Positions 1,574 through 27,717 of a stretch of 32,000 nt of DNA are shown piece after piece; position 1 is the stretch's first letter, and each line of letters begins with the position of its first letter. The notes under the pieces were generated by a model, which saw only the letters and a list, made by a program, of their open reading frames with translations, was not told the DNA's origin and ran no database searches. The stretch covers positions 1,680,001-1,712,000 of the forward strand of contig NZ_CP011041.1 of the NCBI RefSeq assembly GCF_002310835.1, in the 5' to 3' direction. A program made the position numbers and the translations under genes. The DNA comes from Pseudoalteromonas tetraodonis (GTDB taxonomy: Bacteria > Pseudomonadota > Gammaproteobacteria > Enterobacterales > Alteromonadaceae).

Positions 1574-1588
1574 TTTAAGTGCTCCTGC

Positions 1589-2287: not shown

Positions 2288-2316
2288 GAGTGACTCCTCA
2301 TTCTATGCTATTGCAA

Positions 2317-3213
2317 TTATTGTGTGTGTAATGCCACTGAAACTTTACTAACAGGCTGTTTATTAAGCGCATTAGTAATTTGCCAACCTGCTTGTGCGAG
2401 CCTTTTTAAATCAATTCCATGTTCAATGCCAAGCCCTTGCAGTAAGTAAACAACATCTTCGGTGGCAACATTTCCTGACGCACCCTTAGCGTAAGGGCAG
2501 CCACCAAGGCCAGCAACGGCAGCGTCAACCGTTGAAATACCTAGGCTTAAGGCAGCGTAAATATTTGTGAGCGCCTGTCCATAGGTATCATGAAAGTGTA
2601 CTGCAAGCTTACTTTTATCAATATGCTTGAGCAGCAATGTAAGCAGCTCAGTCACTTTACCTGCGGTGCCGACACCAATAGTATCGCCAAGGCTCACTTC
2701 ATAGCAGCCAAGCGCTAATAACTTTTGTGCCACGTTTAAAACAACCTGAGGGTCAACGTCTCCCTCATAAGGGCAGCCTAAAACACAGCTTACATAACCA
2801 CGAACGCGTATATTATTGGCTTTAGCAAAAGTCATTACCTCGCTAAAACGATCAATACTTTGCGCTATTGAACAATTTATATTTTTTTGACAAAACGCTT
2901 CGCTGGCCGCCGTAAATATAGCAAATTCTTTAATACCAACAGCATGCGCAGCTTGTGCGCCTTTTAAATTTGGCGTTAAGGCACTTAAATTAATCTCTGG
3001 AAGGTCAAGCGCACTGATCACCTCGCTTGAGTCTGCCATTTGTGGCACCCATTTGGGAGATACAAATGCACCAGCTTCTATGTCTTTTAATCCCGCGGCG
3101 GCGAGGGCATTAATAAGTGTTACTTTATCTTCAGTGCTGACGGTTTTTTCATTTTGTAAACCATCACGTGCGCCCACTTCAACAATACGAACTTTGTTTG
3201 CAAAGGCACTCAT
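2317..3213 (-). CDS. liuE: Hydroxymethylglutaryl-CoA lyase
   Basis: 298 aa. It has VEVGARDGLQNE near the N-terminus and GGCPYA...GNVATED near the C-terminus, the HMGL-like TIM barrel signature. Its start overlaps the liuD stop by 1 nt (TAATG on the minus strand). Confidence 0.93.
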   Translation of the reverse strand: MSAFANKVRIVEVGARDGLQNEKTVSTEDKVTLINALAAAGLKDIEAGAFVSPKWVPQMADSSEVISALDLPEINLSALTPNLKGAQAAHAVGIKEFAIFTAASEAFCQKNINCSIAQSIDRFSEVMTFAKANNIRVRGYVSCVLGCPYEGDVDPQVVLNVAQKLLALGCYEVSLGDTIGVGTAGKVTELLTLLLKHIDKSKLAVHFHDTYGQALTNIYAALSLGISTVDAAVAGLGGCPYAKGASGNVATEDVVYLLQGLGIEHGIDLKRLAQAGWQITNALNKQPVSKVSVALHTQ

Positions 3214-5204
3214 TAAGCACCTTCCTGAACAGTCGTATCTTCAACAATGGCTAACAGTGCGCCGTGTGAAACTAGTTCACCTTCACCAAAGCAGTAACTC
3301 TGTAATATGCCGTCATGCGGTGCATTAAGTGTATATTCCATTTTCATGGCTTCGATAATAACAACGGCATCACCTTTAGTGATAGTGCTACCTACTTCAA
3401 TTAAATGTTTTACTACCGTGCCATTGAGTGGCGCAGCGAGCGGCAGCGCGTCATTTTCGTGTGAACTAATATAATGTTTATCAACATATTCAAACTTAGT
3501 TTGCAGTGCTTTATTCATTACAGTAATTGCATTGTCAGTTATGCTGACATGTGCGCTGTGCTTTTCACCGTTAATAAATACGTTGCACACACCATTATTT
3601 AACGTCCCTTGAACACTGTATACGCCCGTACTGTGTGTCACATTGTAACCCTGCGCAGTTTTGATAGCGCTTAGCGGTAAATCTACAAATGGGATTTTAA
3701 TTGCCTGCGGTGCATTTAAAGTAAACCCACTCAGTTGTTGCCAAGGGCTGGCACTATTGTTTTGTGCTTGGTGCGTGTTTAACGACTCTAAATAGGCAAA
3801 AGCGGCAATAAGCTGGCTTGATAGCAATAATGACTCATCAACTGCAGCGAGTGAATCACCTTGCTCAGCAATAAAGTGTGTACTTGGCGCGCCTTGTTTA
3901 AAACTTGCGTGGCAAGCTAAGTTATGTAAAAAGCCAATATTGGTACTAAAGCCTGCTAAATGAAATTGCTCAAGCGCCTGTTGCAAACGAGAAAGCGCTT
4001 GTTCGCGATTATCATCATGAACAATTAACTTTGCAATCATTGGGTCGTAGTAGGGGCTTATTTCATCACCTTGGGCAATCCCGGTATCTATGCGTACAAA
4101 TTCACTATTAACGGGGACATGTAGCGCTTCAATGGTGCCTGAGCACGGAATAAAGTCATTTGCAGGGTCTTCGGCGTAAATACGCGCTTCAAAGCTATGG
4201 CCTTGCAGTTGAATATCAGATTGCTTTAACGGCAGTGTTTGCCCGCCCGCAATATTAATTTGCCAGTTCACTAAATCAACACCGGTCACCATTTCGGTCA
4301 CTGGGTGCTCTACTTGCAGGCGAGTGTTCATTTCCATAAAGAAAAATTCATTACCGCAAAGTAAAAACTCAACAGTACCCGCACCACGGTAATTAATGGC
4401 TAATGCACAGCGTACAGCCGCTTCGCCCATTTCTTTACGCAGCGCGTCAGATAAACCTGGAGCAGGGGCTTCTTCAATCACTTTTTGGTGTCGGCGTTGC
4501 AACGAACAGTCACGATCACCCAAATAAACACAATTACCGTGATTATCTGCAAATACTTGTACTTCAACATGGCGAGGTTGATTAACGTAGCGCTCTAATA
4601 GCACTAAATCGTTACCAAAACCGGCAATGGCTTCACGTTGGGCGCCTTCAAGTGCAGCTATAAAGTCTTTCGGCTTTTCTACCACTCGCATCCCTTTACC
4701 GCCACCGCCAAAGGCCGCTTTGATAAGAACAGGGTAACCAATTTTTTCAGCCTCAGATTGCAAAAAAACAGGGTCTTGTTTATCACCATAGTAACCAGGT
4801 ACCAAAGGAACGTTTGCCGCGGCCATTATTTCTTTAGCACGGGTTTTTGAGCCCATTGCTTCAATACTCGTTGCTGGTGGGCCAATAAAAGCAATGTTAT
4901 TTGCTTCACAGGCTTTAGCAAATTCACTGTTTTCTGATAAAAAGCCGTAGCCTGGATGAATGCAATCAGCGCCACTGGCTTTAGCAACCTGCAAAATTTT
5001 ATCTGCGACTAGGTATGAATCTTTACTTGGCGCAGCACCAATATGGTAGGCTTCGTCGGCCATTTTTACATGTTGCGCGTTTTTATCTGCATCTGAATAC
5101 ACCGCAACCGTGGTTAAGCCCATTTGCTTTGCGGTGCGCATAATACGACAGGCAATTTCGCCACGGTTAGCAATCAGAATTTTTTGTAATTGTACTGTGT
5201 TCAT
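3213..5204 (-). CDS. liuD: 3-Methylcrotonyl-CoA carboxylase alpha subunit (biotin carboxylase plus BCCP domain)
   Basis: It contains KILIANRGEIACR, an ATP-grasp core and a C-terminal biotinylation motif EAMKME. The track ORF extends to 5225, but the ATG at 5204 (MNTVQLQKILIANRGE) has an AGGA Shine-Dalgarno 5 nt upstream and avoids overlapping liuC. Confidence 0.93.
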   Translation of the reverse strand: MNTVQLQKILIANRGEIACRIMRTAKQMGLTTVAVYSDADKNAQHVKMADEAYHIGAAPSKDSYLVADKILQVAKASGADCIHPGYGFLSENSEFAKACEANNIAFIGPPATSIEAMGSKTRAKEIMAAANVPLVPGYYGDKQDPVFLQSEAEKIGYPVLIKAAFGGGGKGMRVVEKPKDFIAALEGAQREAIAGFGNDLVLLERYVNQPRHVEVQVFADNHGNCVYLGDRDCSLQRRHQKVIEEAPAPGLSDALRKEMGEAAVRCALAINYRGAGTVEFLLCGNEFFFMEMNTRLQVEHPVTEMVTGVDLVNWQINIAGGQTLPLKQSDIQLQGHSFEARIYAEDPANDFIPCSGTIEALHVPVNSEFVRIDTGIAQGDEISPYYDPMIAKLIVHDDNREQALSRLQQALEQFHLAGFSTNIGFLHNLACHASFKQGAPSTHFIAEQGDSLAAVDESLLLSSQLIAAFAYLESLNTHQAQNNSASPWQQLSGFTLNAPQAIKIPFVDLPLSAIKTAQGYNVTHSTGVYSVQGTLNNGVCNVFINGEKHSAHVSITDNAITVMNKALQTKFEYVDKHYISSHENDALPLAAPLNGTVVKHLIEVGSTITKGDAVVIIEAMKMEYTLNAPHDGILQSYCFGEGELVSHGALLAIVEDTTVQEGA

Positions 5205-5212
5205 AATGCGTC

Positions 5213-5983
5213 CTAGAGTTGCCATTGGGGAGGGCGTTTATCAAAAAAGGCGCTCAGTCCTTCTTGGCCTTCAGTTGATACACGAATTTTAGCTATACGC
5301 TCTGCAGTCAGTGCAATTAGCTCCTCGTTTATCTCTTTATTGGCAACATCGTTAATAAGTGCTTTTGCGGCTTTAACGGCAATAGGGCCGTTATCAATCA
5401 AGGTTTGCAGCAAATTATCGAGGGCTGTCTCTAAGTTCCCAGTAATTTGATGCACTAAACCCAGTTGCTTTGCTGTGTGGGCATCAAACACTTCTGCAGT
5501 TAAAAAATATCTGCGTGCAGAACGCTCACCAATGGCCTTAATCACATAAGGGCTGATCACGGCAGGTATTAGCCCAAGTTTAACTTCACTTAAACAAAAT
5601 TGTGCATCGTCTTTACTAAGCGCAATATCACAGCAGGCAATTAAGCCTAATGCCCCACCAAAGGCGGCACCTTGTACCGCACAAATTGTAGGATGCGGGC
5701 TCTGTGCTAATACTTGCATAAGTTTAGCCAGTTGCATTGAATCAGCTAAGTTATCGTTATAGTTATTATCTGCCATCGATTTCATCCAGGCTAAGTCGGC
5801 ACCGGCTGAAAAATGTTTACCTTCGGTTTTGAGTACTAAGGCACGAATATCGAGTGTATTAGCATGTTCAATACATTGAATAAGCTCATGGATAACGTCG
5901 CTATTAAACGCATTACGTTTTTCTGGGCGGCTTAAAACGAGTACAGCCACATTAGATTTTGTTATTTGTAGTGTTACTGACAT
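5213..5983 (-). CDS. liuC: Methylglutaconyl-CoA hydratase (crotonase family)
   Basis: 256 aa in the enoyl-CoA hydratase fold (FSAGADL, GAAFGGALGLIACCDI). Its position between the two MCCase subunits is the canonical liu operon order. Confidence 0.85.
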   Translation of the reverse strand: MSVTLQITKSNVAVLVLSRPEKRNAFNSDVIHELIQCIEHANTLDIRALVLKTEGKHFSAGADLAWMKSMADNNYNDNLADSMQLAKLMQVLAQSPHPTICAVQGAAFGGALGLIACCDIALSKDDAQFCLSEVKLGLIPAVISPYVIKAIGERSARRYFLTAEVFDAHTAKQLGLVHQITGNLETALDNLLQTLIDNGPIAVKAAKALINDVANKEINEELIALTAERIAKIRVSTEGQEGLSAFFDKRPPQWQL

Positions 5984-5995
5984 TGTGCGCTCCGG

Positions 5996-7603
5996 TTACA
6001 TTCTAAATACGCCAAACTTAGACTCACGCTGTGGTGCATTTTTAGCTGCTGTTAATGCAAGCCCTAACACATTACGTGTATCGACAGGGTCTATAATGCC
6101 ATCGTCCCATAAGCGGGCACTGGCATAATAAGGATGACCTTGTTGTTCGTATTGACTAATAATTGGCTTTTTAAAATCGCTAACTTCTTGCTCGCTCATG
6201 CTTTCGCCTTTACGGGCTAATCCATCTTGTTTAACTTGTGCCATAACACCGGCAGCTTGCTCACCACCCATGACTGAAATACGGGCATTTGGCCACATCC
6301 ACATCATGGTCGGTTCAAATGCACGGCCACACATTCCATAATTGCCGGCGCCATAAGAGCCACCAATAAGCACGGTGAATTTTGGTACATCAGCACACGA
6401 CACCGCCATCACCATTTTAGCGCCATGTTTAGCAATGCCTTCGGCTTCGTATTTTTTACCGACCATAAAGCCAGTAATATTTTGTAAAAATACCAATGGA
6501 ATGTTGCGCTGAGCACACAGCTGAATAAAGTGCGCGCCTTTTTGCGCCGACTCACTAAATAAAATACCGTTATTAGCCACTATGCCCACAGGGTTGCCAT
6601 AAATGCTGGCAAAGCCTGTCACCAATGTTTCGCCAAAGTAACGTTTAAATTCATCAAAAGACGAGTCATCGACAGTGCGGGCTATTACTTCACGCACATC
6701 AAATGGCTTTTTAAGATCAGTACCAACAATGCCGTAAAGCTCGTTAATATCGTAACGGGGAGCTTTTACGTCATCTAATAATGGGGCGGTAGGGCGTGTG
6801 TAATTAATTCGCTCTATGCATTGGCGTGCAATTGATAATGCATGCGCATCATTTTCAGCGTAATGATCGGCCACACCCGATGTTTTACAATGAACATCGG
6901 CGCCGCCAAGCTCTTCTGCGGTAACTTCTTCACCGGTTGCCGCTTTTACCAGTGGTGGGCCTGCTAAAAATATAGTGCCTTGCTCTTTAACAATAATACT
7001 TTCATCGGCCATAGCAGGAACATACGCACCACCTGCGGTACATAAGCCCATAACCACTGCAATTTGTGGAATGCCTTTACCCGACATACGTGCTTGATTG
7101 TAAAAAATACGCCCAAAATGCAGTTTATCTGGAAATACATCGTCTTGCTCTGGCAAATTAGCACCGCCAGAATCAACTAAGTAAATACACGGTAAGTGGC
7201 AACGCTCAGCAATATCTTGTGCGCGTAAATGCTTTTTAACAGTAAGGGGGAAATAGGTGCCACCTTTAACTGTCGCGTCGTTTGCAATCACCATACATTC
7301 AACGCCTTTCACGCGACCAATACCTGCAACCACACCGGCACAAGGTATCTCTTGTTCATACACACCAAATGCAGCAAATTGCGATATTTCTAAAAAGGGT
7401 GAGCCTTCATCTAATAAAGTACTGATACGGTCACGAACAAACAGCTTTCCTCTGCTTTCATGGCGCTCTTTAAGTGCAGCGCCACCACCTAAGCTAATAT
7501 TGGCAACTTTATCGCGTAAATCATCCACCAGCGCCGACATATTTTTGTGGTTTTGCACAAAACTAGGATCGTGGGGATTAACGCTCGATTTTAAAATCGT
7601 CAT
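5996..7603 (-). CDS. liuB: 3-Methylcrotonyl-CoA carboxylase beta subunit (carboxyltransferase)
   Basis: 535 aa in the carboxyl-transferase family, with length and sequence typical of MccB ([43 protein letters not shown]). Confidence 0.95.
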
Positions 7604-7613
7604 AAATTAATCC

Positions 7614-8789
7614 TTAACGGCTTTCAGTAAATAATTCACGACCAATTAACATACGGCGTATTTCTGAGGTGCCTGCACCAATCTCGTATAATTTCGCATC
7701 ACGCAGTAAGCGACCTGTTGCGTATTCGTTTATGTAGCCATTGCCGCCTAAAATTTGGATTGCATCAAGGGCCATTTTAGTTGCAAGCTCTGCAGCGTAT
7801 AAAATTGCGCCAGCTGCGTCTTTACGGGTGGTTTCGCCGCGATCACAGGCTTTTGCTACTGTGTACACATAAGAGCGGGCTGCATTCATTTGTGTATACA
7901 TATCGGCAATTTTGCCTTGAATTAACTGAAATTGACCAATAGGACTGTCAAACTGCTTACGCTCATGAATGTAAGGCACCACAATGTCCATACATGCTTG
8001 CATAATTCCTAACGGGCCTGCAGCTAAAACAACTCGCTCGTAATCAAGGCCGCTCATAAGTACCTTAACGCCTTCGTTTAAGTTACCTAAAATGTTTTCT
8101 TCGGGTACTTCGCAGTTATCAAATACCAGTTCACAGGTGTTTGATCCGCGCATACCGAGTTTGTCGAGTTTTTGTGCGGTAGAAAACCCCGGGAATGTTT
8201 TCTCAACAATAAAGGCGGTAATACCTTTCGCACCGGCGTTTAAATCTGTTTTTGCGTAAATAACCAGAGTATCGGCGTCAGGGCCATTGGTGATCCACAT
8301 TTTATTGCCGTTTAAAATGTACTTATCGCCTTTTTTCTCGGCTTTAAGTTTCATTGATACAACATCAGAGCCTGCGTTAGGCTCACTCATGGCCAAGGCA
8401 CCAATGTGTTCACCGCTAATTAGTTTAGGTAAGTATTTTTCTTTTTGTGCTTGTGATCCATTACGGTTTATTTGATTAACACACAGGTTTGAATGCGCAC
8501 CGTAACTTAAACCAATAGAGGCACTTGCACGGCTAATTTCTTCCATGGCAATAACGTGCTCTAAATAACCTAAGCCAGCACCACCAAATTCTTCATCCAC
8601 GGTCATGCCAAGCACGCCCATTTCACCCATTTGCGGCCAAAGTTCATTGGGGAACGCATTATCAAGGTCAGTTTTTTCAGCTAGTGGGGCAATTTCTTGA
8701 CTGGCAAAGCTGTTTACGTGACTGCGGATCATATCTGCAGTTTCGCCAAGGCCAAAGTTCATTTCTTTATATAGTGAAATAGTGCTCAT
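7614..8789 (-). CDS. liuA: Isovaleryl-CoA dehydrogenase
   Basis: 391 aa acyl-CoA dehydrogenase. The N-terminus [17 protein letters not shown] and the C-terminus [32 protein letters not shown] are typical of IVD. It is the first structural gene after liuR. Confidence 0.92.
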
Positions 8790-8824
8790 GATTAATTCCT
8801 GTGTGTTGATGACGTTGTTATATT

Positions 8825-9259
8825 TTATTCATCTATTTTGCTAAGCGTGTCGCGACAGCGACGTTCAGCGGTGACCAGTTCCATAAGAACCACTTTAATG
8901 TCATCCATCTGTTGTGAAAGATCGGCTTTTTTCTCACTGATAAGGTCAAGCATAGTAACTAACTGTTTTGCACTTGATTTATCAGCATCATACAGTTCAA
9001 ACAAACGACCTGTTTCAGCTAAGGTGAAACCTAAACGTTTACCGCGCAGTATTAGCTTAAGGCGTACCTTGTCGCGCTTTGAGTAAATACGTGTTTGGCC
9101 ATTGCGCTCTGGCGATATTAACCCTTGGTCTTCGTAAAAACGGATAGAGCGGGTAGTAATATCAAATTCTTTCGCTAATTCGCTGATACTAAAAGTTTGT
9201 TCGTTTTTAGCCGGCTCATTGGCTGAATTTGCAAAGTTTGTTTGATTATCTGATTTCAT
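8825..9259 (-). CDS. liuR: MerR-family transcriptional regulator of the leucine catabolic operon (LiuR type)
   Basis: 144 aa. It has the Mer[30 protein letters not shown] followed by a coiled-coil dimerisation helix. It is the first gene of the liu operon, as described for gammaproteobacterial LiuR. Confidence 0.85.
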
Positions 9260-9498: not shown

Positions 9499-9588
9499 TT
9501 TTATGTATGCTCGTATTTATCAGATTAGTTTAAACATTAAGCTAAACATAATAAAACATGTTTGCGTTAATAGAAAATGGAGCCTTTT

Positions 9589-10770
9589 ATGTCTTTCGAA
9601 AGCGTTGTAATTGTAGCAGCAAAACGCACCCCAATGGGTGGATTTATGGGCGCACTAAGTGATGCGCAGTCTACTGAACTAGGTGCTACAGCTATTGCAG
9701 GTGCACTTGCTCAAACGGGTTTAAGCAATGATGCAATTGATGAAGTGATTATGGGCTGTGTATTACCAGCTGGCTTAGGCCAAGCGCCTGCACGTCAAGC
9801 AATGCTTAAAGCGGGGCTTGCACTTAGCACCGGTGCTACCACTATTAATAAAGTATGTGGCTCGGGTTTAAAAGCAGCGATGTTAGCGAATGATTTAATT
9901 AAGGCGGGTTCTATTGAATCAGCAATCGCTGGTGGTATGGAAAGCATGACCAATGCGCCTTACTTTATTCCTAAAGCCCGTGGCGGTATGCGTATGGGAC
10001 ATGGTGAAATAAAAGATCATATGATGAGCGATGGCCTTGAAGATGCTTACGACAATAAAGCAATGGGTTGTTTTGCTCAAGACACAGCCGATGAATACGG
10101 TATTGGTCGTGAGCAAATGGATAATTTTGCATTAAGCTCACTGACTAAAGCAAAAGCTGCAATTGAAAATGGTAGCTTTGAGAACGAGATTACTCCGCAC
10201 ACTATAAAAACGCGTAAGGGTGACATCACCGTTTCAATCGATGAGCAACCTGGCAACGCACGACCTGAAAAAATTCCAAGCTTAAGAGCTGCATTTAAAA
10301 AAGACGGCACCATTACTGCCGCTAACTCATCGTCTATTTCAGATGGTGGCGCAGCACTGATTTTAATGAGCGAATCAAAAGCAAAAGCAGAGGGTTTAAC
10401 GCCACTGTGCAAAATTGTGGCTCACAGCACGCATTCTCAAAAACCCAGTGAATTTACCGTAGCGCCTGTTGGTGCAATGAACAGCGTACTTGAAAAAGCA
10501 GGGTGGACAACCGCCGATGTTGACCTATGGGAAATTAACGAAGCGTTTGCCATGGTTACCATGCTAGCTATTAACGAGTTAAAGCTTGATGAGAACAAAG
10601 TTAATGTTAACGGTGGAGCCTGTGCATTGGGTCATCCTATTGGTGCCAGCGGTGCGCGTATTTTAGTAACACTTATCCATGCACTTAAAAACCGGGGTCT
10701 TAAAAAGGGCGTAGCCTCTTTATGTATTGGTGGCGGTGAAGCCGTTGCCATGGCCGTAGAAGCACTTTAA
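9589..10770 (+). CDS. Acetyl-CoA C-acyltransferase / acetoacetyl-CoA thiolase (ivdA in Shewanella nomenclature)
   Basis: Thiolase motifs are present: NKVCGSGLKA (active-site Cys) and NVNGGACALGHPIGASGARI. The track start at 9577 contains the GGAG that serves as Shine-Dalgarno for the ATG at 9589 (MSFESVVIVAAKRTP). Confidence 0.9.
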   Translation: MSFESVVIVAAKRTPMGGFMGALSDAQSTELGATAIAGALAQTGLSNDAIDEVIMGCVLPAGLGQAPARQAMLKAGLALSTGATTINKVCGSGLKAAMLANDLIKAGSIESAIAGGMESMTNAPYFIPKARGGMRMGHGEIKDHMMSDGLEDAYDNKAMGCFAQDTADEYGIGREQMDNFALSSLTKAKAAIENGSFENEITPHTIKTRKGDITVSIDEQPGNARPEKIPSLRAAFKKDGTITAANSSSISDGGAALILMSESKAKAEGLTPLCKIVAHSTHSQKPSEFTVAPVGAMNSVLEKAGWTTADVDLWEINEAFAMVTMLAINELKLDENKVNVNGGACALGHPIGASGARILVTLIHALKNRGLKKGVASLCIGGGEAVAMAVEAL

Positions 10771-10840
10771 CTAATAATAAAGCCGCAGCAACTATAACAA
10801 AAACGCTGCGGTACCCAATTTAATCAATAGGATTTTAATT

Positions 10841-12331
10841 ATGCACCAAGTACCCTTACTCATTAACGGCGAATTTATTCAATCAACTTCAAATGAATTA
10901 ATTGATGTTGTAAATCCTGCTAATCAAGAAGTGTTAGCGCAAGTACCTTGTGCTACAGACGCTGAAATGGACGCGGCTATTGCCTCTGCCAGCGAAACGT
11001 TTAAAACGTGGAAAGACGTACCAATTACAGAACGTGCGCGCATTATGATGAAATACGCGGCGCTGTTAAAAGAAAACCATGACGAACTAGCCACTATTAT
11101 TTGTCATGAATTAGGTAAAACATTTGAAGATGCAAAAGGCGATGTGTGGCGTGGTATTGAAGTAGTCGAGCAAGCTGCTAATGCACCATCATTAATGATG
11201 GGCGAGACGATGGAAAACGTAGCGCGTAAAATCGATACCTATTCATATATGCAGCCACTAGGTGTATGTGCAGGTATTACCCCATTTAATTTTCCGGCCA
11301 TGATCCCACTTTGGATGTTCCCACTGGCAATTGTGTGTGGTAACACCTTTATTTTAAAACCGTCTGAGCAAGACCCACTTACGCCAATGCGTTTAGCTGA
11401 GCTATTTATTGAAGCGGGTGCACCAAAGGGTGTTTTACAAGTTGTGCACGGTACAAAACCACAAGTAGACCGTTTATTAGAAGACAAAGCGGTTCGCGCT
11501 ATTTCATTTGTAGGTTCATGTGGCGTAGGTGCATACATTTATTCTAAAGGCACACAACATCTAAAACGTGTGCAAGCCTGTGTGGGCGCTAAAAACCACA
11601 TGGTAATTATGCCTGATGCAAGCAAGTCTCACGTAGTTAATAACTTAGTAGGCGCATCGGTTGGTGCGGCAGGCCAGCGTTGTATGGGTATTTCAGTGGC
11701 GGTATTTGTTGGCCAAGCAAAAGACTGGGTTGATGAAATTAAAGCTGGCTTTGAAGGTGTACGCCCAGGTGTATGGGATGATGCAGACGCTGCATATGGT
11801 CCGCAAACATCACCAGCTGCAAAAGCGCGTATTTTATCATTGATTGCCGATGGTAAAGCGCAAGGCGCAACCTGTTTAATTGATGGCTCTGACTTTACTG
11901 TTGAAGGGTTTGAGCAAGGTAACTGGATAGGCCCAACGTTATTTACTGATGTAACCAAAGAGATGAACTTGTACAAAGAAGAGATTTTTGGCCCAGTACT
12001 GGCGTGTATGTTTGTAGATACGCTTGAAGAAGCCATCGCCCTTATTAACGAAAGCCCTTACGGTAACGGTACCTCATTATTTACATCAAGTGGTGCAGCT
12101 GCACGTAAGTTCCAACACGAAATTGAAGTGGGTCAAGTGGGTATTAATGTGCCTATTCCTGTGCCACTGCCATTTTTCTCGTTCACGGGTTGGAAAGGCT
12201 CATTCTACGGCGATACTCACACCTATGGTAAACAAGGTATTCGTTTTTACACAGAAACTAAAACTATTACCTCTCGTTGGTTTGAGGATGACATTGCCTC
12301 AGGTCCAAACATGAGTATTAATCTTAAATAA
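10841..12331 (+). CDS. mmsA: Methylmalonate-semialdehyde dehydrogenase (CoA-acylating)
   Basis: 496 aa in the ALDH family, with the MmsA-typical N-terminus [10 protein letters not shown] and the catalytic region GQRCMGISV. Confidence 0.94.
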
Positions 12332-12357
12332 TATTGCACTGAATAATTAATAAAAAA

Positions 12358-12389
12358 GAGGGGCACAACACACAGTGTTGTCGCTCCTC
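12358..12389 (+). other. Strong intra-operon hairpin between mmsA and the acyl-CoA dehydrogenase gene (no U-tract)
   Basis: GAGGGGCACAACAC-aca-GTGTTGTCGCTCCTC forms a 7+7 bp stem with one bulged C. It lies 27 nt after the mmsA stop and is followed by ACTAATTAC rather than a T run. Confidence 0.35.
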
Positions 12390-12451
12390 ACTAATTACTC
12401 CCGTTATGGGATGCTTTGACAACAAACAAAACACACTTAAAGAGGTCTACC

Positions 12452-13609
12452 ATGGACTTTAACTTATCTGAAGATCAACAAGCCTTTGCGCAAACCGCTC
12501 GCCAATTCGCAGAGTCTGAACTAGCACCACACGCTGCCAAGTGGGATCGCGAACATATTTTTCCTAAAGACACAATAAAAGCCGCTGGTGAGCTAGGTTT
12601 TTGTGGTTTATACACCCCAGAAGAAGCCGGTGGCTTAGGTTTATCTCGCTTAGATTCAAGCATTATTTTTGAACAGCTGGCGATGGGCTGTACCGCAACA
12701 ACGGCTATGTTAACTATTCATAATATGGCAACCTGGATGATAGCCAGTTTTGCGACCGATATCGTAAAAGAGCAATACGTTGAACAATTAGTAATGGGTG
12801 AATTACTTGCATCGTACTGTTTAACTGAGCCAGGCTCGGGTTCTGATGCTGCGTCATTAAAAACTAAAGCAGTGCGTGACGGTGATGAGTATGTTATTAA
12901 CGGCTCAAAAATGTTTATTTCAGGCGCCGGTGAAACAGAAATTCTAGTGGTCATGGCGCGTACGGGAGCCGATGGCCCTGGTGGTATTTCGGCTTTTGTT
13001 GTACCTGCAGATGCATCAGGTGTTGAATACGGTAAAGCAGAAGAAAAAATGGGGTGGAATGCACAGCCCACACGTTTAATTAGCTTTGAAGATGTGCGTA
13101 TTCCAGCCGCAAACTTATTAGGCCAAGAAGGTGAAGGCTTTAAATTCGCCATGCAAGGTTTAGACGGCGGCCGTATTAATATTGCCACTTGCTCTATTGG
13201 TACAGCCCAAGCGGCACTTAATACGGCCCGTGAGTATTTAAAAGAGCGTACCCAATTTGGTAAGCCATTGGCTGCGTTTCAAGCGCTACAGTTTAAAATT
13301 GCCGATATGAATACCGAGCTTGTAGCAGCACGCCAAATGGTGCGCTTAGCGGCGTTTAAACTCGATACTAACGACAGTGAAAAAACCACTTATTGCGCCA
13401 TGGCTAAACGTTTTGCCACCGATGTTGGTTTTACCGTGTGTAATGACGCGCTGCAAATTCACGGTGGCTACGGTTACATAAAAGAATACCCGCTTGAGCG
13501 CCATGTTAGAGATGTACGTGTTCATCAAATTCTTGAGGGCACTAACGAAATTATGCGTGTGATTATTGCGCGTCGTATTTTAGCCGAATCAGCCAGCGAA
13601 GTTTTATAA
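12452..13609 (+). CDS. Short/branched-chain acyl-CoA dehydrogenase (isobutyryl-/2-methylbutyryl-CoA dehydrogenase; ivdC)
   Basis: It has the ACAD fold (CLTEPGSGSDAASLKT, QIHGGYGYIKEYPLERHVRDVRVHQILEGTNEIMR). The ATG at 12452 (MDFNLSEDQQ) follows an AGAGG Shine-Dalgarno. The track's upstream TTG start at 12416 is unlikely. Confidence 0.9.
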   Translation: MDFNLSEDQQAFAQTARQFAESELAPHAAKWDREHIFPKDTIKAAGELGFCGLYTPEEAGGLGLSRLDSSIIFEQLAMGCTATTAMLTIHNMATWMIASFATDIVKEQYVEQLVMGELLASYCLTEPGSGSDAASLKTKAVRDGDEYVINGSKMFISGAGETEILVVMARTGADGPGGISAFVVPADASGVEYGKAEEKMGWNAQPTRLISFEDVRIPAANLLGQEGEGFKFAMQGLDGGRINIATCSIGTAQAALNTAREYLKERTQFGKPLAAFQALQFKIADMNTELVAARQMVRLAAFKLDTNDSEKTTYCAMAKRFATDVGFTVCNDALQIHGGYGYIKEYPLERHVRDVRVHQILEGTNEIMRVIIARRILAESASEVL

Positions 13610-13619
13610 GGAGATTAGT

Positions 13620-14399
13620 ATGTCAAATCCTAGCATTGAGTTAACTATTGAAGGCCATGTAGCTATTTTAACCATGTCGAATCCGCCAGCGAATACCTGG
13701 ACGAAAGACACCTTAGTGGCGCTTAAAGACACGGTTAACCAATTAAATACCAATAAAAATATTTATGCGTTAGTACTGACTGGTGAAGGCGAGAAGTTCT
13801 TTAGCGCCGGTGCCGACCTAAATGTATTTGCCAGTGGCGATAAAGGTGTAGCTGCAGATATGTCACGTGTATTTGGTGAAGCGTTTGAAGCGCTAACTAA
13901 TTTTAGAGGTGTGTCGGTTGCAGCCATTAATGGCTATGCAATGGGTGGCGGCCTTGAAGTAGCGCTTGCTTGTGATATTCGTATTGCAGAAGAGCAAGCA
14001 CAAATGGCGTTACCTGAAGCAAAAGTGGGTTTATTACCGTGTGCTGGTGGAACGCAAAACTTAGCATGGCTTGTTGGCGAGGGCTGGGCAAAACGCATGA
14101 TTTTATGCGGTGAGCGCTTAAAAGCCGATAAAGCCCTACAAATTGGCTTAGTGGAAGAAGTGGTTGCACAAGGTGAAAGCTTTGCCGCAGCATTAAAACT
14201 GGCAAACCAAGTAGCAGAGCAAAGTCCATCGTCGGTTGCTGCATGTAAAACCTTGATTCAAAAAGGGCGTCATCAACCAATGGCGAATACATTGCCACTG
14301 GAGCGTGAACTGTTTGTTGGTTTATTTGATACCGAAGATCAGCAAGAGGGCGTGAACGCCTTTTTAGAAAAACGTAAAGCTATTTGGGTGAATGGCTAA
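13620..14399 (+). CDS. Enoyl-CoA hydratase (methacrylyl-CoA hydratase; ivdD)
   Basis: 259 aa crotonase with FFSAGADLNVF and GYAMGGGLEVALACDIRIA. The stop overlaps the next start (TAATG). Confidence 0.9.
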   Translation: MSNPSIELTIEGHVAILTMSNPPANTWTKDTLVALKDTVNQLNTNKNIYALVLTGEGEKFFSAGADLNVFASGDKGVAADMSRVFGEAFEALTNFRGVSVAAINGYAMGGGLEVALACDIRIAEEQAQMALPEAKVGLLPCAGGTQNLAWLVGEGWAKRMILCGERLKADKALQIGLVEEVVAQGESFAAALKLANQVAEQSPSSVAACKTLIQKGRHQPMANTLPLERELFVGLFDTEDQQEGVNAFLEKRKAIWVNG

Positions 14400-15556
14400 T
14401 GACAGAACTTACTCGTTTAAATTCAGCTGATGCTGCCGTGGTATTTGAAACAGCAACCACAGACAATGGCCGACTCATTGGTTTTGCAACCTTAAATGCG
14501 CCTAAATCGTTAAATGCCCTTAATTTTGAAATGATCAGCTTACTCGAGCCGCAACTACAGCAATGGGACAAAGACGATAACATTGCATTAGTGGTTCTTA
14601 AAGGCACTGGTGAAAAAGCATTTTGTGCCGGTGGCGATGTAGTGAGCTTACACAAAGCAATGAGTGAGGGAAAACCGAGCTCACTGGTTGAAGAATTTTT
14701 TACTCAAGAGTATCAGCTCGATTACCTAATTCACTGTTACAACAAACCCATTTTAGTGTGGGGTAACGGGATTGTAATGGGCGGCGGTTTAGGTTTAATG
14801 GCCGGTGCCAGTCATCGCGTAGTGACTGAAACATCACGCATTGCTATGCCAGAGCAAACCATTGGTCTTTACCCTGATGTAGGTGGCAGTTATTTTTTAC
14901 ATAAAATGCCTGCGCATGTTGGTTTGTTTTTAGGGCTGACCTCGGCATCAATAAATTGTGAAGACGCTAAGCTTGTATCGCTTGCCGATCACTTTGTAAA
15001 TGCCGATAAATACCCAGAGCTTGTTGAAGCGTTACTCAATACTAAATGGGGTAAAACAGCAAGTTTAAACCACGACAAGCTAAGTAACTTGCTTATTGAG
15101 TTAGATAACAACTCTAGCCGTATGCCTAAAGGCAATTTAAAAGCCAACTTATCGCTAATTCAAAAGTTAGGCGACTTTGACACCTTACAGCAGCAGGTAG
15201 ATTACATTTTAAACCTAACCACAGATGACAAATGGCTACAACGTGCACAAAAATCGTTGGCGCATGGTTGCCCTTTAAGTTGTGCCTTAGTAAGTGAGCA
15301 GCTCAAACATAGCAAAGGTAAAAACTTAGCTGAGTGTTTTAAAATGGAATTGGGCATGTCGGTTCGTGCCGGTGAAGTGGGCGAGTTTCAAGAAGGTGTA
15401 CGTGCCTTACTAATCGATAAAGATGGTGCGCCACAGTGGCAGTTTAAATCGTTAGCTGATGTACCAAAAGAAGTAGTAGAGAGCTTTTTTGCAAACCGCT
15501 TTGGCGAGCAACATCCGCTAGAGCCGTACTTTTCACAACTAAATTTACAAGGGTAA
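14399..15556 (+). CDS. 3-Hydroxyisobutyryl-CoA hydrolase (ivdE)
   Basis: About 385 aa of the ECH_2-type crotonase family (AFCAGGDV, GIVMGGGLGLMAGASHRVVTE, EGVRALLIDKD). The ATG at 14399 overlaps the upstream stop, which fits translational coupling. The track start at 14384 would overlap more. Confidence 0.85.
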   Translation: MTELTRLNSADAAVVFETATTDNGRLIGFATLNAPKSLNALNFEMISLLEPQLQQWDKDDNIALVVLKGTGEKAFCAGGDVVSLHKAMSEGKPSSLVEEFFTQEYQLDYLIHCYNKPILVWGNGIVMGGGLGLMAGASHRVVTETSRIAMPEQTIGLYPDVGGSYFLHKMPAHVGLFLGLTSASINCEDAKLVSLADHFVNADKYPELVEALLNTKWGKTASLNHDKLSNLLIELDNNSSRMPKGNLKANLSLIQKLGDFDTLQQQVDYILNLTTDDKWLQRAQKSLAHGCPLSCALVSEQLKHSKGKNLAECFKMELGMSVRAGEVGEFQEGVRALLIDKDGAPQWQFKSLADVPKEVVESFFANRFGEQHPLEPYFSQLNLQG

Positions 15557-15560
15557 AGCG

Positions 15561-16460
15561 ATGAGTAAACTTAATATAGGATTTATTGGTTTAGGAAACA
15601 TGGGCGGCCCAATGGCAGCAAACTTAGTTAAAGCAGGCCACAGTGTGCGCGTGTTTGACTTAAGTGCAGAGGCCGTGAAAGAGCTTGTGAATCATGGGGC
15701 TAGTGCGGCGCAAAGCGCCAGTGACTGTGCTCACGAGGCTGATGTGCTAATTAGCATGCTACCGGCAAGCAAACATGTTAAATCACTTTATTTAGGCACA
15801 GACGAGCAATCGGGTTTAATTAAAGTACTGAGTAAAAGTACCTTAGTGATTGATTGTTCAACTATAGATGCACAATCAGCACGTGACGTTGGCCATGCCC
15901 TAAGTGAGCAAGGTATTGCGTTTGTTGATGCACCGGTATCGGGTGGTGTAGCAGGTGCAACAGCAGGAACGCTTACGTTTATCGTTGGTGGTGAGCAAGC
16001 TGCATTCGATAAAGCCAATACTGTATTAGTCGATATGGGTAAAAACATATTCCATGCTGGTGATATTGGTGCTGGGCAAGTTGCCAAAATATGTAACAAT
16101 ATGCTGTTGAGTATTTTAATGGCAGGCACCAGTGAAGCCATTCAAATGGGCATTAATAACGGCCTCGACGCAAAAGTACTCAGCGACATAATGAGCGCAA
16201 GTTCGGGTCGTAACTGGACGTTAGAACTTTATAACCCCTGCCCAGGTGTTATGGAAACCGCACCAGCTAGTAACGACTATAAACCCGGCTTTATGGTTGA
16301 TTTAATGGCTAAAGATTTAGGCCTTGCTATGGAAGCGGCGCAACAAAGTAATTCACTGACGCCAATGGGCTCAATGGCTAAAAATTTATACACTATGATG
16401 CAGCACCAAGGTGCAGGCAGTGATGATTTTAGTGCCATTTTTAAATTGTTTTCGAAGTAG
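15561..16460 (+). CDS. mmsB: 3-Hydroxyisobutyrate dehydrogenase
   Basis: 299 aa. It has the N-terminal Rossmann motif IGFIGLGNMGGPMAANL, then DAPVSGG and GAGQVAKICNN, typical of HIBADH. Confidence 0.92.
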   Translation: MSKLNIGFIGLGNMGGPMAANLVKAGHSVRVFDLSAEAVKELVNHGASAAQSASDCAHEADVLISMLPASKHVKSLYLGTDEQSGLIKVLSKSTLVIDCSTIDAQSARDVGHALSEQGIAFVDAPVSGGVAGATAGTLTFIVGGEQAAFDKANTVLVDMGKNIFHAGDIGAGQVAKICNNMLLSILMAGTSEAIQMGINNGLDAKVLSDIMSASSGRNWTLELYNPCPGVMETAPASNDYKPGFMVDLMAKDLGLAMEAAQQSNSLTPMGSMAKNLYTMMQHQGAGSDDFSAIFKLFSK

Positions 16461-16469
16461 GAAAGTATT

Positions 16470-17240
16470 GTGGAAATAAAAAATAATACCGTAGTTATTA
16501 CCGGTGGCGCACAAGGCTTAGGTTTTGCAATGGCGCAAAAGTTTGCCTTAATGGGCGCTAATATTGCCTTAATTGATATGGCGCAAGCCCAATTAAATGA
16601 AGCAACCGAGCAACTATCTGCATTAGCAGGCGTAACAGGCACTATTAAAGGCTACAGCGCCAATGTAACCGTTGAGAGCGAAGTTGAAGACGTTTTTAAT
16701 ACTATTAACAGTGACTTTGGCCACATTGGGGTATTAATTAATAACGCCGGCATTTTACGCGATGGTATGTTTATAAAAGCCAAAGACGGCAAAGTGGTTA
16801 AAAAAATGTCGCTTGAACAATTTCAATCAGTGATTGACGTTAACCTAACAGGTGTATTTTTAGCAGGGCGCGAAGCTGCAAGCCACATGATTGAATCAGG
16901 CAAAGGTGGCGTAATTGTAAATATGTCGAGCGTAGCGCGTGCGGGTAATATTGGCCAAACTAACTATGCTGCCTCAAAAGCCGGTGTTGTGGCACTAACC
17001 ACTACATGGGCTAAAGAGCTTGGCCGTTTTGGTATTCGCGTTGGCGCCATTGCCCCAGGTGTTATTAGCACCGCAATGACCGATGTAATGAAGCCCGAAG
17101 CAAAACAACGCATGCTTGCTGTAACGCCCGTAGGGCGCTTAGGTGAAACCGCTGAAATAGCCCATACCGCACAGTATATTATCGAAAACGACTTTTTTAC
17201 TGGCCGTGTAGTAGAGATAGACGGCGGTATTCGTTTGTAA
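16470..17240 (+). CDS. SDR-family oxidoreductase (probable 3-hydroxy-2-methylbutyryl-CoA / 3-hydroxyacyl-CoA dehydrogenase; ivdG)
   Basis: 256 aa classical SDR with a GTG start. It carries TGGAQGLG, NNAG and the YAASK catalytic motif. It is the last gene of the operon, followed by a terminator. Confidence 0.85.
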   Translation: MEIKNNTVVITGGAQGLGFAMAQKFALMGANIALIDMAQAQLNEATEQLSALAGVTGTIKGYSANVTVESEVEDVFNTINSDFGHIGVLINNAGILRDGMFIKAKDGKVVKKMSLEQFQSVIDVNLTGVFLAGREAASHMIESGKGGVIVNMSSVARAGNIGQTNYAASKAGVVALTTTWAKELGRFGIRVGAIAPGVISTAMTDVMKPEAKQRMLAVTPVGRLGETAEIAHTAQYIIENDFFTGRVVEIDGGIRL

Positions 17241-25118: not shown

Positions 25119-25358
25119 TTTTTTAACCTAAGAATAATATAAAGGTGTGTTTTACCCTATTTACGATGCTGTGGTTAAGTAGGATACGGCGAAATAGCAA
25201 ATAACAGCGATATATGTCTTAACCATTACTAAATATCATGACATAACGGCTTGATAAACATATTGTCATGCTTAAAGGTTTAATTCACACAATGCTCGCG
25301 TTACTATCAAATATAAAGGTAACACTGCGCTTTTAACAACTAACCTAGAGAACCCGCA

Positions 25359-27176
25359 TTGAAAGCTAAAGAAATTCGCAATTTTTATATCAACGAAGAG
25401 CAGTCGGTTTATTTGCTGTCACACCGTGATGCAAAAAAACATCGTCAGTGGCTTAATATTTGTATTAAACAGCTCACTTTGCTTGGGTATAAAAAGGTAG
25501 AAATGATTGGCTCAGGGGCATTTGGGTTTGTATTTGCAGGGGATGATGAACATGGCCTGCCTTGGGTGTTTAAGTTTTCTAGAATTACGCTCGCACAAAG
25601 TGTACGTGATCGCCTTGAAGATGAAGCGTATATGCTTTCGCAAATCAAAAATCCCTTAGTGCCAACATTTTATGGCTTTGAGCGAATAAAAAAACAAGGC
25701 ATTTTGATGATGGCGCGCGCTATTGGTGAAGACCTTGAAAAAGTATCACTAAAGCAAGGGCGCTTACCGGCCGCCAAAATAATGAGCTTAGCGGTTAAAT
25801 TAAGAAATGTGTTGCTTGATTTACGTCGTCATAAAAATGGTTTAATCCCGCAGCCTATTGTACATGGTGATATTAAACCCTCTAACTTGGTGTGGGATGA
25901 AAATGAAAAGCAGCTTTCATTGGTTGACTGGGGAAGCTCTGTTTATGCCCAAGTAGATGAACAAGGAAACCCAATTGCCAGTAATTTTATGGATTTAATG
26001 TCAGGTGACTTAAGTACCACTAACGCACGTATGGGCGATGTGTATTTTATAGGTGATGCGCAAATGTCGGGTGAAAAGTCATCCCCTCGTTTTGATGAGC
26101 AGGGGGTTGCATCAACCCTATATGCACTTGCCTCGGCGCAGTCTTGCCGATTTGGTGCTCAGGCTATACCGGCCAGTAGTTTAATGCTACCTAAAGAGCT
26201 GGCGAATGTAATTGATGGCATGCTTTCAAAAGAGCGTAGTGTAAGGGATAGAGCCGGCGACTATTTTATGCGTAACATAGAAACCATGGCAAAAGCGTAT
26301 TTACCACAACTACCAAAAACAGAAACTAAAGCGGCAATTCCGTTTTGGTTTAGCCAAGACCCCGAACCCGAAACCGTAGTTTATAGCTCTAGAAAACAAT
26401 TTTTACGCCAAGCCGATCATAAACAACAACTTTTAGATGTTAACGATGCTCAGCTTGATAGGTATTATAAAGAGTTTTTATTTGATACTGGGGATACCGA
26501 AAAAGCGTTTTTAGCCTCTATTAGCCGCTTAGCTAAATATCCTGTAGTAGGAGGGCTCAGCTTTCATTGGAAAGATGAATCTTTGTATGTTGAATCGTCA
26601 CTCATTATGCATGACGAGACCCTCGCAACCGCATTCACCGATGCAGTAAACAACACAGTAATGTTAGCCCAGGCTATTAGCCAAAAAGGCTTATTTAAGT
26701 GTTGTTTATTTGATGCCCGCAAAACGATTCAGTTAGAACGTGATGGCACTGGCGCGTTTAAATTTAACCAGTTACCTGAGCTTGATTATGAAGTGGTTAA
26801 TGTAAAAGCCAGCGATGTAACGCGTCCGCATTCATATTTTGAAGATGGTAAAGACCCCGATGAGCAATTGCAACTGCCTAAAAAAGTGATTAAATGTGTA
26901 TTTGAGCTAAACCAGATACATCATACCGGCTGTATTATTTTTGAAGCGCTGCCAGATAGGATGAAAATTCATCATTACTACAGATTACTTGATGCCAGCA
27001 AAGAAGTAGAATTTAAACGTTTACTAAATAAGCTTATGCAATACGCGGTAAATATTACCGACGTGGGGGTGGCTGGGTTTATGAAGTTGCCGTATAAAAA
27101 TACTCGCGAGTTTAGTTTATGCGAGCAGCAACCCAGCAATTACTACCCTAAAAATCCAAAACAACTACTTAATTAA
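25359..27176 (+). CDS. Protein-kinase-like protein (Hanks-type fold, atypical motifs) with a ~300-aa C-terminal region of unknown function
   Basis: 605 aa from a TTG start. The kinase features are:
- Gly-loop IGSGAFGFVF (aa 50-59);
- candidate VAIK-type Lys in WVFKFSR (K72);
- candidate alpha-C Glu in RLEDEAYML;
- catalytic loop VHGDIKPSNLVW (aa 168-179);
- Mg loop LVDWGSS (aa 188-194).
Residues ~300-605 have no motif I recognise. Confidence 0.75.
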   Translation: MKAKEIRNFYINEEQSVYLLSHRDAKKHRQWLNICIKQLTLLGYKKVEMIGSGAFGFVFAGDDEHGLPWVFKFSRITLAQSVRDRLEDEAYMLSQIKNPLVPTFYGFERIKKQGILMMARAIGEDLEKVSLKQGRLPAAKIMSLAVKLRNVLLDLRRHKNGLIPQPIVHGDIKPSNLVWDENEKQLSLVDWGSSVYAQVDEQGNPIASNFMDLMSGDLSTTNARMGDVYFIGDAQMSGEKSSPRFDEQGVASTLYALASAQSCRFGAQAIPASSLMLPKELANVIDGMLSKERSVRDRAGDYFMRNIETMAKAYLPQLPKTETKAAIPFWFSQDPEPETVVYSSRKQFLRQADHKQQLLDVNDAQLDRYYKEFLFDTGDTEKAFLASISRLAKYPVVGGLSFHWKDESLYVESSLIMHDETLATAFTDAVNNTVMLAQAISQKGLFKCCLFDARKTIQLERDGTGAFKFNQLPELDYEVVNVKASDVTRPHSYFEDGKDPDEQLQLPKKVIKCVFELNQIHHTGCIIFEALPDRMKIHHYYRLLDASKEVEFKRLLNKLMQYAVNITDVGVAGFMKLPYKNTREFSLCEQQPSNYYPKNPKQLLN

Positions 27177-27234
27177 TAAACCGCTCGCTTAAGCTGGTGG
27201 TTTTAAAATTGAAAGTACAAAAATAGAAAGTTCA

Positions 27235-27666
27235 ATGGCAAAATCTAAACCACAAATTACATTACAAAGTTTCGGCATATATAGTCACTGGGACAAAGAC
27301 AGTAAATCGCTACCGCAAATTACTCAATTCACTACGCAAGTCAAAGCAGAACTTGATGTAGAATTTGGTCTGATAGTTAATATTAAAAAAGCTAAAGGCG
27401 AAAAACTACATTTTTGTATTTACCACCCAGGTATTATAGATACCAATGGCGAAGTGATGCTGCCTTTTGAGGGGACTGTATATGTTAAAGACAACGACTG
27501 GTCGTTTTATTTAGGCGATACGGTATGGGAGCCTATTGAGGATAAAATAGGTGACTGGCGTATGACCTTATCTTTAGCGGGGAAAGTGATTGCGGATAAA
27601 ACATTTAATCTTATTAATGAAAAAACTAAAACTGAAGACGACTTTTGGAAATACCGCGGTTATTAA
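27235..27666 (+). CDS. DUF3859-like small protein (143 aa), function unknown
   Basis: It starts 58 nt downstream of the kinase gene on the same strand. The sequence SFGIYSHWD...LPQITQFTTQVKAELDVEFGLIVNIKKAKGEKL...IYHPG...WEP...GDWRMTL fits my recollection of the DUF3859 family. That family assignment is unverified. Confidence 0.6.
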   Translation: MAKSKPQITLQSFGIYSHWDKDSKSLPQITQFTTQVKAELDVEFGLIVNIKKAKGEKLHFCIYHPGIIDTNGEVMLPFEGTVYVKDNDWSFYLGDTVWEPIEDKIGDWRMTLSLAGKVIADKTFNLINEKTKTEDDFWKYRGY

Positions 27667-27686
27667 TTACTTCAGTTTGCAGTAAC

Positions 27687-27717
27687 GCAAGAGCTAACGT
27701 TTATTGTTAACTCTTGC
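27687..27717. other. Hairpin between convergent genes (possible weak bidirectional terminator)
   Basis: GCAAGAGCTAAC-gtttatt-GTTAACTCTTGC. There is no clear U-tract on either strand. Confidence 0.35.

Follow-up and report, generated by a model that had tools for sequence, protein, structure and literature searches.

A Conserved Family of Putative Hanks-Type Kinases in Marine Gammaproteobacteria and Its Linkage to Branched-Chain Keto Acid Dehydrogenase Operons

Results and Discussion

A stretch of 32,000 nt from the genome of Pseudoalteromonas tetraodonis (GCF_002310835.1, contig NZ_CP011041.1, positions 1,680,001–1,712,000 of the forward strand; hereafter, the window) contains an open reading frame (ORF) for a 605-aa protein with the features of a Hanks-type Ser/Thr protein kinase (25359..27176, + strand), followed 58 nt downstream on the same strand by a gene of the DUF3859 family (27235..27666). 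The commonest position of this kinase gene among its relatives is that of the last gene in a mitochondrial-type bkd operon (E1α-E1β-E2-kinase), which encodes a predicted branched-chain α-keto acid dehydrogenase (BCKDH). The association between the kinase family and BCKDH is strong and, as far as our literature search reached, previously unremarked. In the reading that we favor, at a probability of roughly one half and on the strength of gene order, this conserved, uncharacterized kinase family would regulate branched-chain amino-acid catabolism post-translationally, with a BCKDH component as the simplest target. The initial annotation of the window, made from its sequence alone, had presented the kinase as a signaling candidate in otherwise housekeeping surroundings; this description missed both the bkd operon as the conserved partner of the family and the leucine and valine/isoleucine catabolic clusters that lie within the window itself.

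Linkage of the Kinase Family to bkd Operons

Relatives of the kinase were surveyed with one genome per species, which yielded at least 256 of them; all synteny counts use the best 80 loci, in which the genes are full-length (∼600 aa) and the encoded kinases are 50–88% identical to the window protein. Neighboring gene families were identified by clustering 1,176 flanking ORFs, and linkage was then counted by tblastn. Three gene families that precede the kinase in the same orientation emerged from the clustering, namely those of the E1α (PF00676), E1β, and lipoyl-E2 components of a 2-oxoacid dehydrogenase, and no other conserved neighbor of the kinase was found among these ORFs. In 50 of the 80 species loci, the E1α-E1β-E2 genes lie ahead of the kinase gene in the same orientation; these loci represent about 15 genera, among them Alteromonas, Marinobacter, Halomonas/Vreelandella, Rheinheimera, Colwellia, Oceanospirillum, Zobellella, Oceanisphaera, Corallincola, and Motiliproteus. 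If Pseudoalteromonas and Shewanella are set aside, linkage holds in 50 of 58 loci; of the eight that lack it, two are contig ends. In 31 loci, 3–244 nt (median 17) lie between the stop codon of E2 and the start codon of the kinase; in ∼15 others, a single intervening gene on the same strand encodes RlmJ (Alteromonas group) or an AAA ATPase (Rheinheimera). Gene calls made independently, with Pfam assignments, recovered E2, a 20-nt gap, and the kinase in the most divergent member of the family (P0125, 37% identity), as well as the same E1α-E1β-E2-kinase arrangement in Parahaliea; in Simiduia, the kinase is not bkd-linked.

The linked complex is, as judged from its sequences, a BCKDH, because among solved structures its E1α is closest to human BCKDH E1α and its E2 is closest to bovine BCKDH E2. 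The E1α (e.g., L065:4030-5211) matches the human protein at 406 bits (E = 1e-120), compared with ∼235 bits (E ∼1e-68) for both pyruvate dehydrogenase and the P. putida BCKDH (232 bits for the E1α of the latter). All 46 clustered, kinase-linked E1α sequences carry the loop HS[ST]SDD, which we take to be the phosphorylation loop in mammals and the site of mammalian regulation.

In Rheinheimera and Alkalimonas (L013:6502-7980, L056, and L014), a gene for a 492-aa AAA ATPase sits immediately upstream of the kinase gene, and in the Rheinheimera loci L013 and L056 this is the gene found between E2 and the kinase. The stop of the ATPase gene in L013 overlaps the start of the longest kinase ORF (both at 7980), and the motif-proximal ATG of the latter is at 7986. 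This ATPase may be a lineage-specific additional partner.

The kinase family is widespread in marine Gammaproteobacteria, given the genera recovered by the species survey (Pseudoalteromonas, Alteromonas, Shewanella, Colwellia, Thalassotalea, Rheinheimera, Alishewanella, Marinobacter, Halomonas/Vreelandella, Oceanospirillum, Motiliproteus, Zobellella, Oceanisphaera, and Corallincola) and by a further search that started from the most divergent member, which added Simiduia, Parahaliea, Pseudomaricurvus, Aestuariirhabdus, and Paraglaciecola. Near-identical proteins occur in Pseudoalteromonas, in the tetraodonis group and others, and their annotation goes no further than “protein kinase domain-containing protein,” “phosphotransferase,” or “serine/threonine protein kinase.” Searches of plasmid and phage collections by tblastn found no copy of the family, and the kinase gene is a core chromosomal gene rather than a mobile one. 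One contig of the survey, labeled “Flavobacterium sp. W21_SRS_FM6” (L072; NZ_JBGQOM010000019.1), bears the Alteromonas-type order E1α-E1β-E2-RlmJ-kinase-TesB, and is probably a contaminant of, or mislabeled within, a Flavobacterium assembly; similarly, the family member labeled Ectocarpus (P0245) is likely to be bacterial contamination.

Architecture of the Kinase

Three parts, conserved to an equal degree, make up each member of the family: a short motif at the N terminus, a full kinase domain, and an α/β domain of ∼270 aa. The window ORF begins with a TTG codon located 8 codons ahead of the invariant sequence FYIxEEQS, and this start is supported because the ATG starts of most homologs lie at an equal distance from it. 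In the N-terminal extension (aa 1–43; 25359..25487, +), 20 of 43 columns are at least 90% identical across the 133 family members whose alignment was used for all residue conservation reported here. The motif FYIxEEQSxYLLS (aa 9–21; 25383–25421) is invariant in the family and is followed by a helix (aa 22–41); the AlphaFold predicted local distance difference test score (pLDDT) is below 50 for aa 1–22, and the motif is predicted to be disordered. The extension looks like a conserved linear motif, and FYIxEEQSxYLLS could serve as a docking, autoinhibitory, or autophosphorylation segment.

A complete eukaryotic-type (Hanks) Ser/Thr protein kinase (ePK) domain occupies aa 44–310 (25488..26288, +), as indicated by Pfam, invariant residues, an AlphaFold2 (AF2) model, and Foldseek. 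The motifs from which the initial annotation had recognized a kinase are all present, including the Gly-rich loop GSGAFG (aa 51–56), the Lys of VFKF (K72), the catalytic loop HGDIKPSN (aa 169–176; 25863..25886, +), and DWG (aa 190–192). Invariant residues in the 133 sequences are G51, G53, K72, E89, H169-G170-D171-I172-K173, N176, and D190-W-G192, and the pattern D-x-K-x-x-N is the Ser/Thr protein-kinase form of the catalytic loop (Hanks subdomain VIb). A deviation at the HRD and DFG positions had also been described, and HGD and DWG do replace them (Arg to Gly and Phe to Trp, respectively), but its importance was overstated: the replaced positions are non-catalytic, the Asp of both motifs is kept, and the catalytic Asp, Lys, and Asn residues are invariant among the members aligned. 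The Pfam Pkinase profile (PF00069) scores 50.1 bits (cut-off 31.7; E = 3.4e-13), with only positions 1–153 of its 263 aligned. The AF2 model of the protein has a pLDDT of 82.8 and a predicted template-modeling score (pTM) of 0.86, and in Foldseek 290–310 of its columns align to whole kinase domains, across both lobes (E down to 3e-12, target TM-score 0.6–0.73); the matches include MEK1, MST3, CaMKII, PAK1, Aurora, and PknB of Staphylococcus aureus (4eqm). In agreement with the initial annotation, the 605-aa protein has neither a transmembrane segment (Kyte-Doolittle hydropathy does not exceed 1.03 in any 19-aa stretch) nor a known sensor domain. Sequence and model thus describe a soluble Hanks-type Ser/Thr kinase with an intact catalytic skeleton that is apparently active, and we infer phosphotransfer onto a protein rather than a small-molecule substrate.

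A variable interdomain linker (aa 311–335; 26289..26363, +), with a mean identity of 19% to members outside Pseudoalteromonas versus ∼50% for the flanking domains, connects the kinase to a family-specific C-terminal α/β domain (aa 336–605; 26364..27173, +) whose conservation equals that of the kinase domain. The initial annotation had reported ∼300 C-terminal residues without a recognizable motif; Pfam, NCBIfam, and fold searches gave no match for this region, and its size is corrected to ∼270 aa, the kinase domain reaching ∼aa 310 in the predicted structure. At least 90% identity is found in 87 of the 270 columns (133 members), and the invariant polar residues include Y342, S344, R345, K447, C449, T456, R461, H491-S-Y-F, D496, D499, E502, H522, E529, H538, and K576. 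No match to aa ∼200–605 was found in Pfam or NCBIfam, the precomputed Pfam annotation of ∼240 listed members contains kinase-fold families only, and a PDB sequence search with the C-terminal domain was also without a match. A phmmer search of aa 200–605 against 1.84 billion representatives returned 58 matches, and those inspected are full-length or partial members of the family, with the exception of two artifact-like sequences (P0130 and P0157).

When modeled alone with AF2, the C-terminal domain reaches a pLDDT of 83.2 and a pTM of 0.80, and Foldseek gave no significant match for it (best E of 0.24 in PDB and 0.028 in BFVD; TM-score <0.2), which makes this a confidently predicted domain without a fold match in either collection. 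The top matches, to HemS/ChuS, PCNA, chlorite dismutase, and HUH Rep, are non-significant and share only a generic duplicated α+β likeness with the domain; a known fold was rejected on these grounds. The order of its secondary-structure elements reads as two β-α-β-β-α-β units, and an hhalign comparison of aa 372–465 with aa 500–592 is in register and weak (E = 0.0018, probability 15%). An internal duplication is therefore suggestive but not established, and a tandem ferredoxin- or ACT-like arrangement is a topological guess. A motif resembling the C-X5-R signature of protein tyrosine phosphatases (C448/C449–R454) was also considered and rejected: the spacing from the invariant Cys, C449, is that of C-X4-R, and this residue falls within a predicted β-strand. 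The domain may function as a sensor or targeting module.

Proposed Function and Alternatives

In the proposed mechanism, the kinase would phosphorylate a BCKDH component, for example at the HS(S/T)SDD loop of E1α, and the C-terminal domain would dock onto the BCKDH complex or sense a pathway metabolite; the kinase would then be a functional analog of the mitochondrial BCKDK, or of AceK at the end of the aceBAK operon. A more specific version can be put forward only tentatively, namely that the family is a bacterial ePK-fold BCKDH kinase, convergent with the GHKL-fold BCKDK, which would switch the mitochondrial-type BCKDH on or off via E1α phosphorylation, and that its C-terminal domain, of unseen fold (possibly a tandem pair of β-α-β-β-α-β units), would either dock on E2 or act as a sensor of branched-chain keto acids or acyl-CoAs. 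Bacterial BCKDH is thought to be transcriptionally controlled, with BkdR among the regulators, and to our knowledge the control of 2-oxoacid dehydrogenase complexes by reversible phosphorylation is regarded as specific to mitochondria, where GHKL-type kinases carry it out. If true, the proposal would be the first phosphorylation control of BCKDH in bacteria that we know of. In the literature searched, the control of bkd, liu, and ivd operons in bacteria is described via transcriptional regulators only (LiuR and TyrR; PMC3223726). That many genera of marine Gammaproteobacteria keep a Hanks-type kinase gene as the last of a mitochondrial-type bkd operon points to an unrecognized post-translational layer, in a pathway that also feeds branched-chain fatty-acid synthesis in these bacteria. 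The hypothesis is directly testable, with one enzyme and one candidate substrate.

Known systems offer points of comparison. The bacterial Hanks-type kinases, such as PknB/Stk1 and E. coli YegI, have the full ePK catalytic domain in common with this family, as reflected in the Foldseek match to S. aureus PknB. In contrast to these kinases, this family is non-RD (HGD), has DWG in place of DFG, and lacks a transmembrane helix and a PASTA or known sensor domain; it adds its own N-terminal motif and a C-terminal domain without relatives, and its gene closes a catabolic operon instead of accompanying that of a PP2C phosphatase. The mitochondrial BCKDK and pyruvate dehydrogenase kinases provide the proposed functional analog, a dedicated kinase associated with BCKDH, and the linked bacterial E1α and E2 are the closest bacterial-type relatives of the mammalian BCKDH subunits (among solved structures), with HS(S/T)SDD kept. 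These mitochondrial kinases have a GHKL/histidine-kinase-like fold, whereas this family has an ePK fold, and any role common to BCKDK and this family would be convergent because the folds differ. AceK, the isocitrate dehydrogenase kinase/phosphatase of the aceBAK operon, is likewise a soluble protein of ∼600 aa with a protein-kinase-like domain and a second large domain, encoded by the last gene of a metabolic operon, and in both cases the flux through that pathway is what the protein would control. The domain order is reversed relative to AceK, there is no sequence match between the two, and phosphatase activity is neither known nor implied for this kinase; of the top 50 Foldseek matches listed for the C-terminal domain, none is significant and none is AceK.

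Several observations weigh against BCKDH regulation as the function of this family. The target is drawn from synteny only, and the kinase gene does not adjoin bkd in any of 9 Pseudoalteromonas and 13 Shewanella loci. No BCKDH gene is present within the window, and in a 99%-identical strain none is found within 10 kb downstream. The HS(S/T)SDD loop is, as far as is known, conserved in BCKDH E1α generally, and is thus not discriminating. The gene between E2 and the kinase in Alteromonas encodes an unrelated rRNA methyltransferase (RlmJ), which implies that the operon tail tolerates unrelated passengers, and no cognate phosphatase gene is conserved near the kinase. Upstream of the window kinase, there is no copy of the LiuR-like palindrome TTTACG-N4-CGTAAA (a sequence derived in this analysis from the liuR-thiolase intergenic region, and not a curated motif). 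The Pfam APH profile (PF01636) also matches the protein marginally, over 47 residues around the catalytic loop (aa 151–197; 24.9 bits versus a cut-off of 23.2). Finally, the literature searched, with subscription journals and fitness databases outside its reach, contained nothing linking a Hanks-type kinase to bacterial BCKDH, and no experiment, phosphoproteome, or fitness data on such a link; it also held no published description of the kinase family, an absence that is no proof of novelty.

The kinase gene is separated from the bkd operon in Pseudoalteromonas and Shewanella, and it stands alone in the window. The window locus lies outside the bkd-linked arrangement, and its protein is a full-length ortholog (50–54% identity) of the products of the linked genes. 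In the pigmented Pseudoalteromonas clade, E1α is located ∼6.6 kb downstream of the kinase.

The strongest alternative is one that we regard as possible though well short of even odds: the protein could be a genuine protein kinase with a target other than BCKDH (general cytoplasmic signaling, a transcription factor, or another enzyme), and its position in the bkd operon could reflect co-expression or historical accident. The level of conservation is unchanged where the kinase is unlinked from bkd, as in Pseudoalteromonas, Shewanella, Alishewanella, Simiduia, and some Colwelliaceae, and the unrelated genes for RlmJ and the AAA ATPase share the same operon tail. Nevertheless, linkage in 50 of the 58 loci outside the two separated genera, over family- and order-level distances and with tight gaps, would be hard to keep without a functional tie, and the clustering of flanking ORFs offered no alternative conserved neighbor.

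The marginal APH match raises an unlikely alternative, in which the protein would phosphorylate a metabolite, as kinases of the APH or choline-kinase type do, and the C-terminal domain would bind this small-molecule substrate. Weak Pfam matches to the ABC1, choline-kinase, and RIO families accompany the APH match, HGD in place of HRD is usual in APH-type enzymes, and many sources annotate the family as “phosphotransferase.” However, the Pkinase score is twice the APH score, the D-I-K-P-S-N loop includes the invariant Ser/Thr-protein-kinase Lys (K173), the GxGxxG loop is present, and the Foldseek alignments to protein kinases (∼300 columns) take in the whole C-lobe; these features favor a protein kinase.

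The initial annotation had paired the kinase with the adjacent DUF3859 gene, and a dedicated signaling or modification module made of these two proteins is now very improbable. Both ORFs exist as it described them, on the same strand and 58 nt apart, and the family assignment of the downstream product is correct: the 143-aa protein, which has no signal peptide, matches PF12975 at 167.6 bits against a cut-off of 24 (E = 1.4e-49, profile positions 2–122 of 123). The gap holds a hairpin followed by UUUU (27178..27203, +) that is as weak as had been claimed (ΔG −12.3 kcal/mol, z −1.2), and the shorter gap of 30–50 nt in three related loci (L002, L004, and L005) makes co-transcription plausible in that sub-clade. 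Co-occurrence across genomes, the lack of which the initial annotation had itself named as refuting the module, failed, as judged by tblastn (up to 8 kb from the kinase) and by jackhmmer applied to six-frame translations of the 80 loci. Only 5 of the 80 loci (L001–L005) have a DUF3859 gene inside this 8-kb distance; all are from Pseudoalteromonas with kinases 84–88% identical to that of the window, and in two of these (L001 and L003) a pair of opposite-strand genes separates it from the kinase. Neither method found DUF3859 near the kinase in the Pseudoalteromonas clade of 76% identity (L006–L009) or in any of the 71 loci from other genera, and jackhmmer detected none in the 75 loci beyond the five.

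DUF3859 is accordingly a lineage-specific adjacent gene and not a conserved partner of the kinase; adjacency in a single genome was misleading here, and the informative neighbor became visible only in other genera. The hairpin is not conserved in related Pseudoalteromonas, being missing in L002 and L004 (gap ∼30 nt) and different in L005. DUF3859 directly abuts a block of VF530 and oxidoreductase genes in three of the five loci, with other genes intervening in L002 and L004. In P. distincta and a related strain (L001:9924-11472 and its equivalent in L003), the two inserted genes that separate the kinase from DUF3859 encode a YHYH-domain lipoprotein-like protein and a 176-aa exported protein. 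The 143-aa protein itself has a distant sequence match to PDB 3n6y, an “immunoglobulin-like protein” (E = 1.5e-3), and no paper in the literature searched mentions DUF3859.

An anti-phage defense kinase related to PD-T4-6, MADS, or BREX PglW is the least probable reading: the PADLOC models for PD-T4-6 match the kinase domain (up to 58.6 bits), as do the NCBIfam models for PglW and MAD6 (E ∼1e-7), but such matches cover the generic kinase core only, far under the family cut-offs (29.7 versus 990 bits and 30.2 versus 460 bits for the NCBIfam equivalogs), the architecture and genomic context differ from those systems, and this is a core chromosomal gene, syntenic beside a catabolic operon across genera and off mobile elements (no plasmid or phage copies), with no defense genes seen in its catabolic or housekeeping neighborhood.

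Catabolic Clusters and Other Features of the Window

Two clusters for branched-chain amino-acid catabolism, assigned by Pfam, are located ∼8 kb upstream of the window kinase. The leucine (liu) cluster (917..9259, −) encodes a MerR-type LiuR-like regulator, an isovaleryl-CoA dehydrogenase-like protein, a carboxyltransferase, an enoyl-CoA hydratase, a biotin carboxylase, a 3-hydroxy-3-methylglutaryl-CoA lyase-like protein, and CoA transferases A and B. The valine/isoleucine cluster (9577..17240, +) encodes a thiolase, an aldehyde dehydrogenase, an acyl-CoA dehydrogenase, an enoyl-CoA hydratase, an ECH_2 hydrolase, a 3-hydroxyisobutyrate dehydrogenase, and a short-chain dehydrogenase/reductase. 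In the divergent region between the genes for the LiuR-like regulator and the thiolase, LiuR-like palindromes are found at 9302–9317 and 9477–9492 (the latter with a site span also of 9477–9498), and these are candidate LiuR operators on the basis of their sequence. The palindrome has 9 matches in the window at two or fewer mismatches, versus 2.8 expected. LiuR control of the window kinase was considered and rejected, as no copy lies upstream of the gene, and a one-mismatch copy at 25820, within the coding region, is probably due to chance.

The kinase gene is preceded by a divergent intergenic region of 240 nt (25119..25358, +) that it shares with an M17 aminopeptidase gene, and is presumed to have its own promoter there. 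A weak σ70-like site is present at 25238–25266 (9 of 12 matches), and such sites in this region are no commoner than in shuffled sequence. The gene is probably either monocistronic or co-transcribed with DUF3859 from this upstream region. Downstream, a stem-loop at 27687..27717 (no strand assigned), between the convergent DUF3859 (+) and VF530 (−) genes, is likely a bidirectional terminator (ΔG −15.7 kcal/mol and z −2.1 for the folded stretch 27660–27735).

Other observations concern the genes on the far side of this intergenic region. The first residues of the M17 (PepA-like) leucyl aminopeptidase (23601–25118, −), MKRIIKASSIALALSMCMNAQA, resemble a signal peptide; the cytosol is the normal location of PepA-type enzymes. 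A methyl-accepting chemotaxis protein (21870–23417, −) has its MCPsignal domain at aa 145–309, followed by a C-terminal region of ∼186 aa (21873–22430) without a significant Pfam match, and the presence of a domain after the signaling module is unusual. Between this gene and the catabolic clusters, a low-GC stretch extends over 17300–21200 (0.355–0.40, versus ∼0.43 in the first 16 kb of the window), and two of its ORFs (19215–19613 and 20301–20816) have no Pfam matches. The data suggest that this stretch is a variable islet, because its counterpart in a 99%-related strain (L084) is shorter and different.

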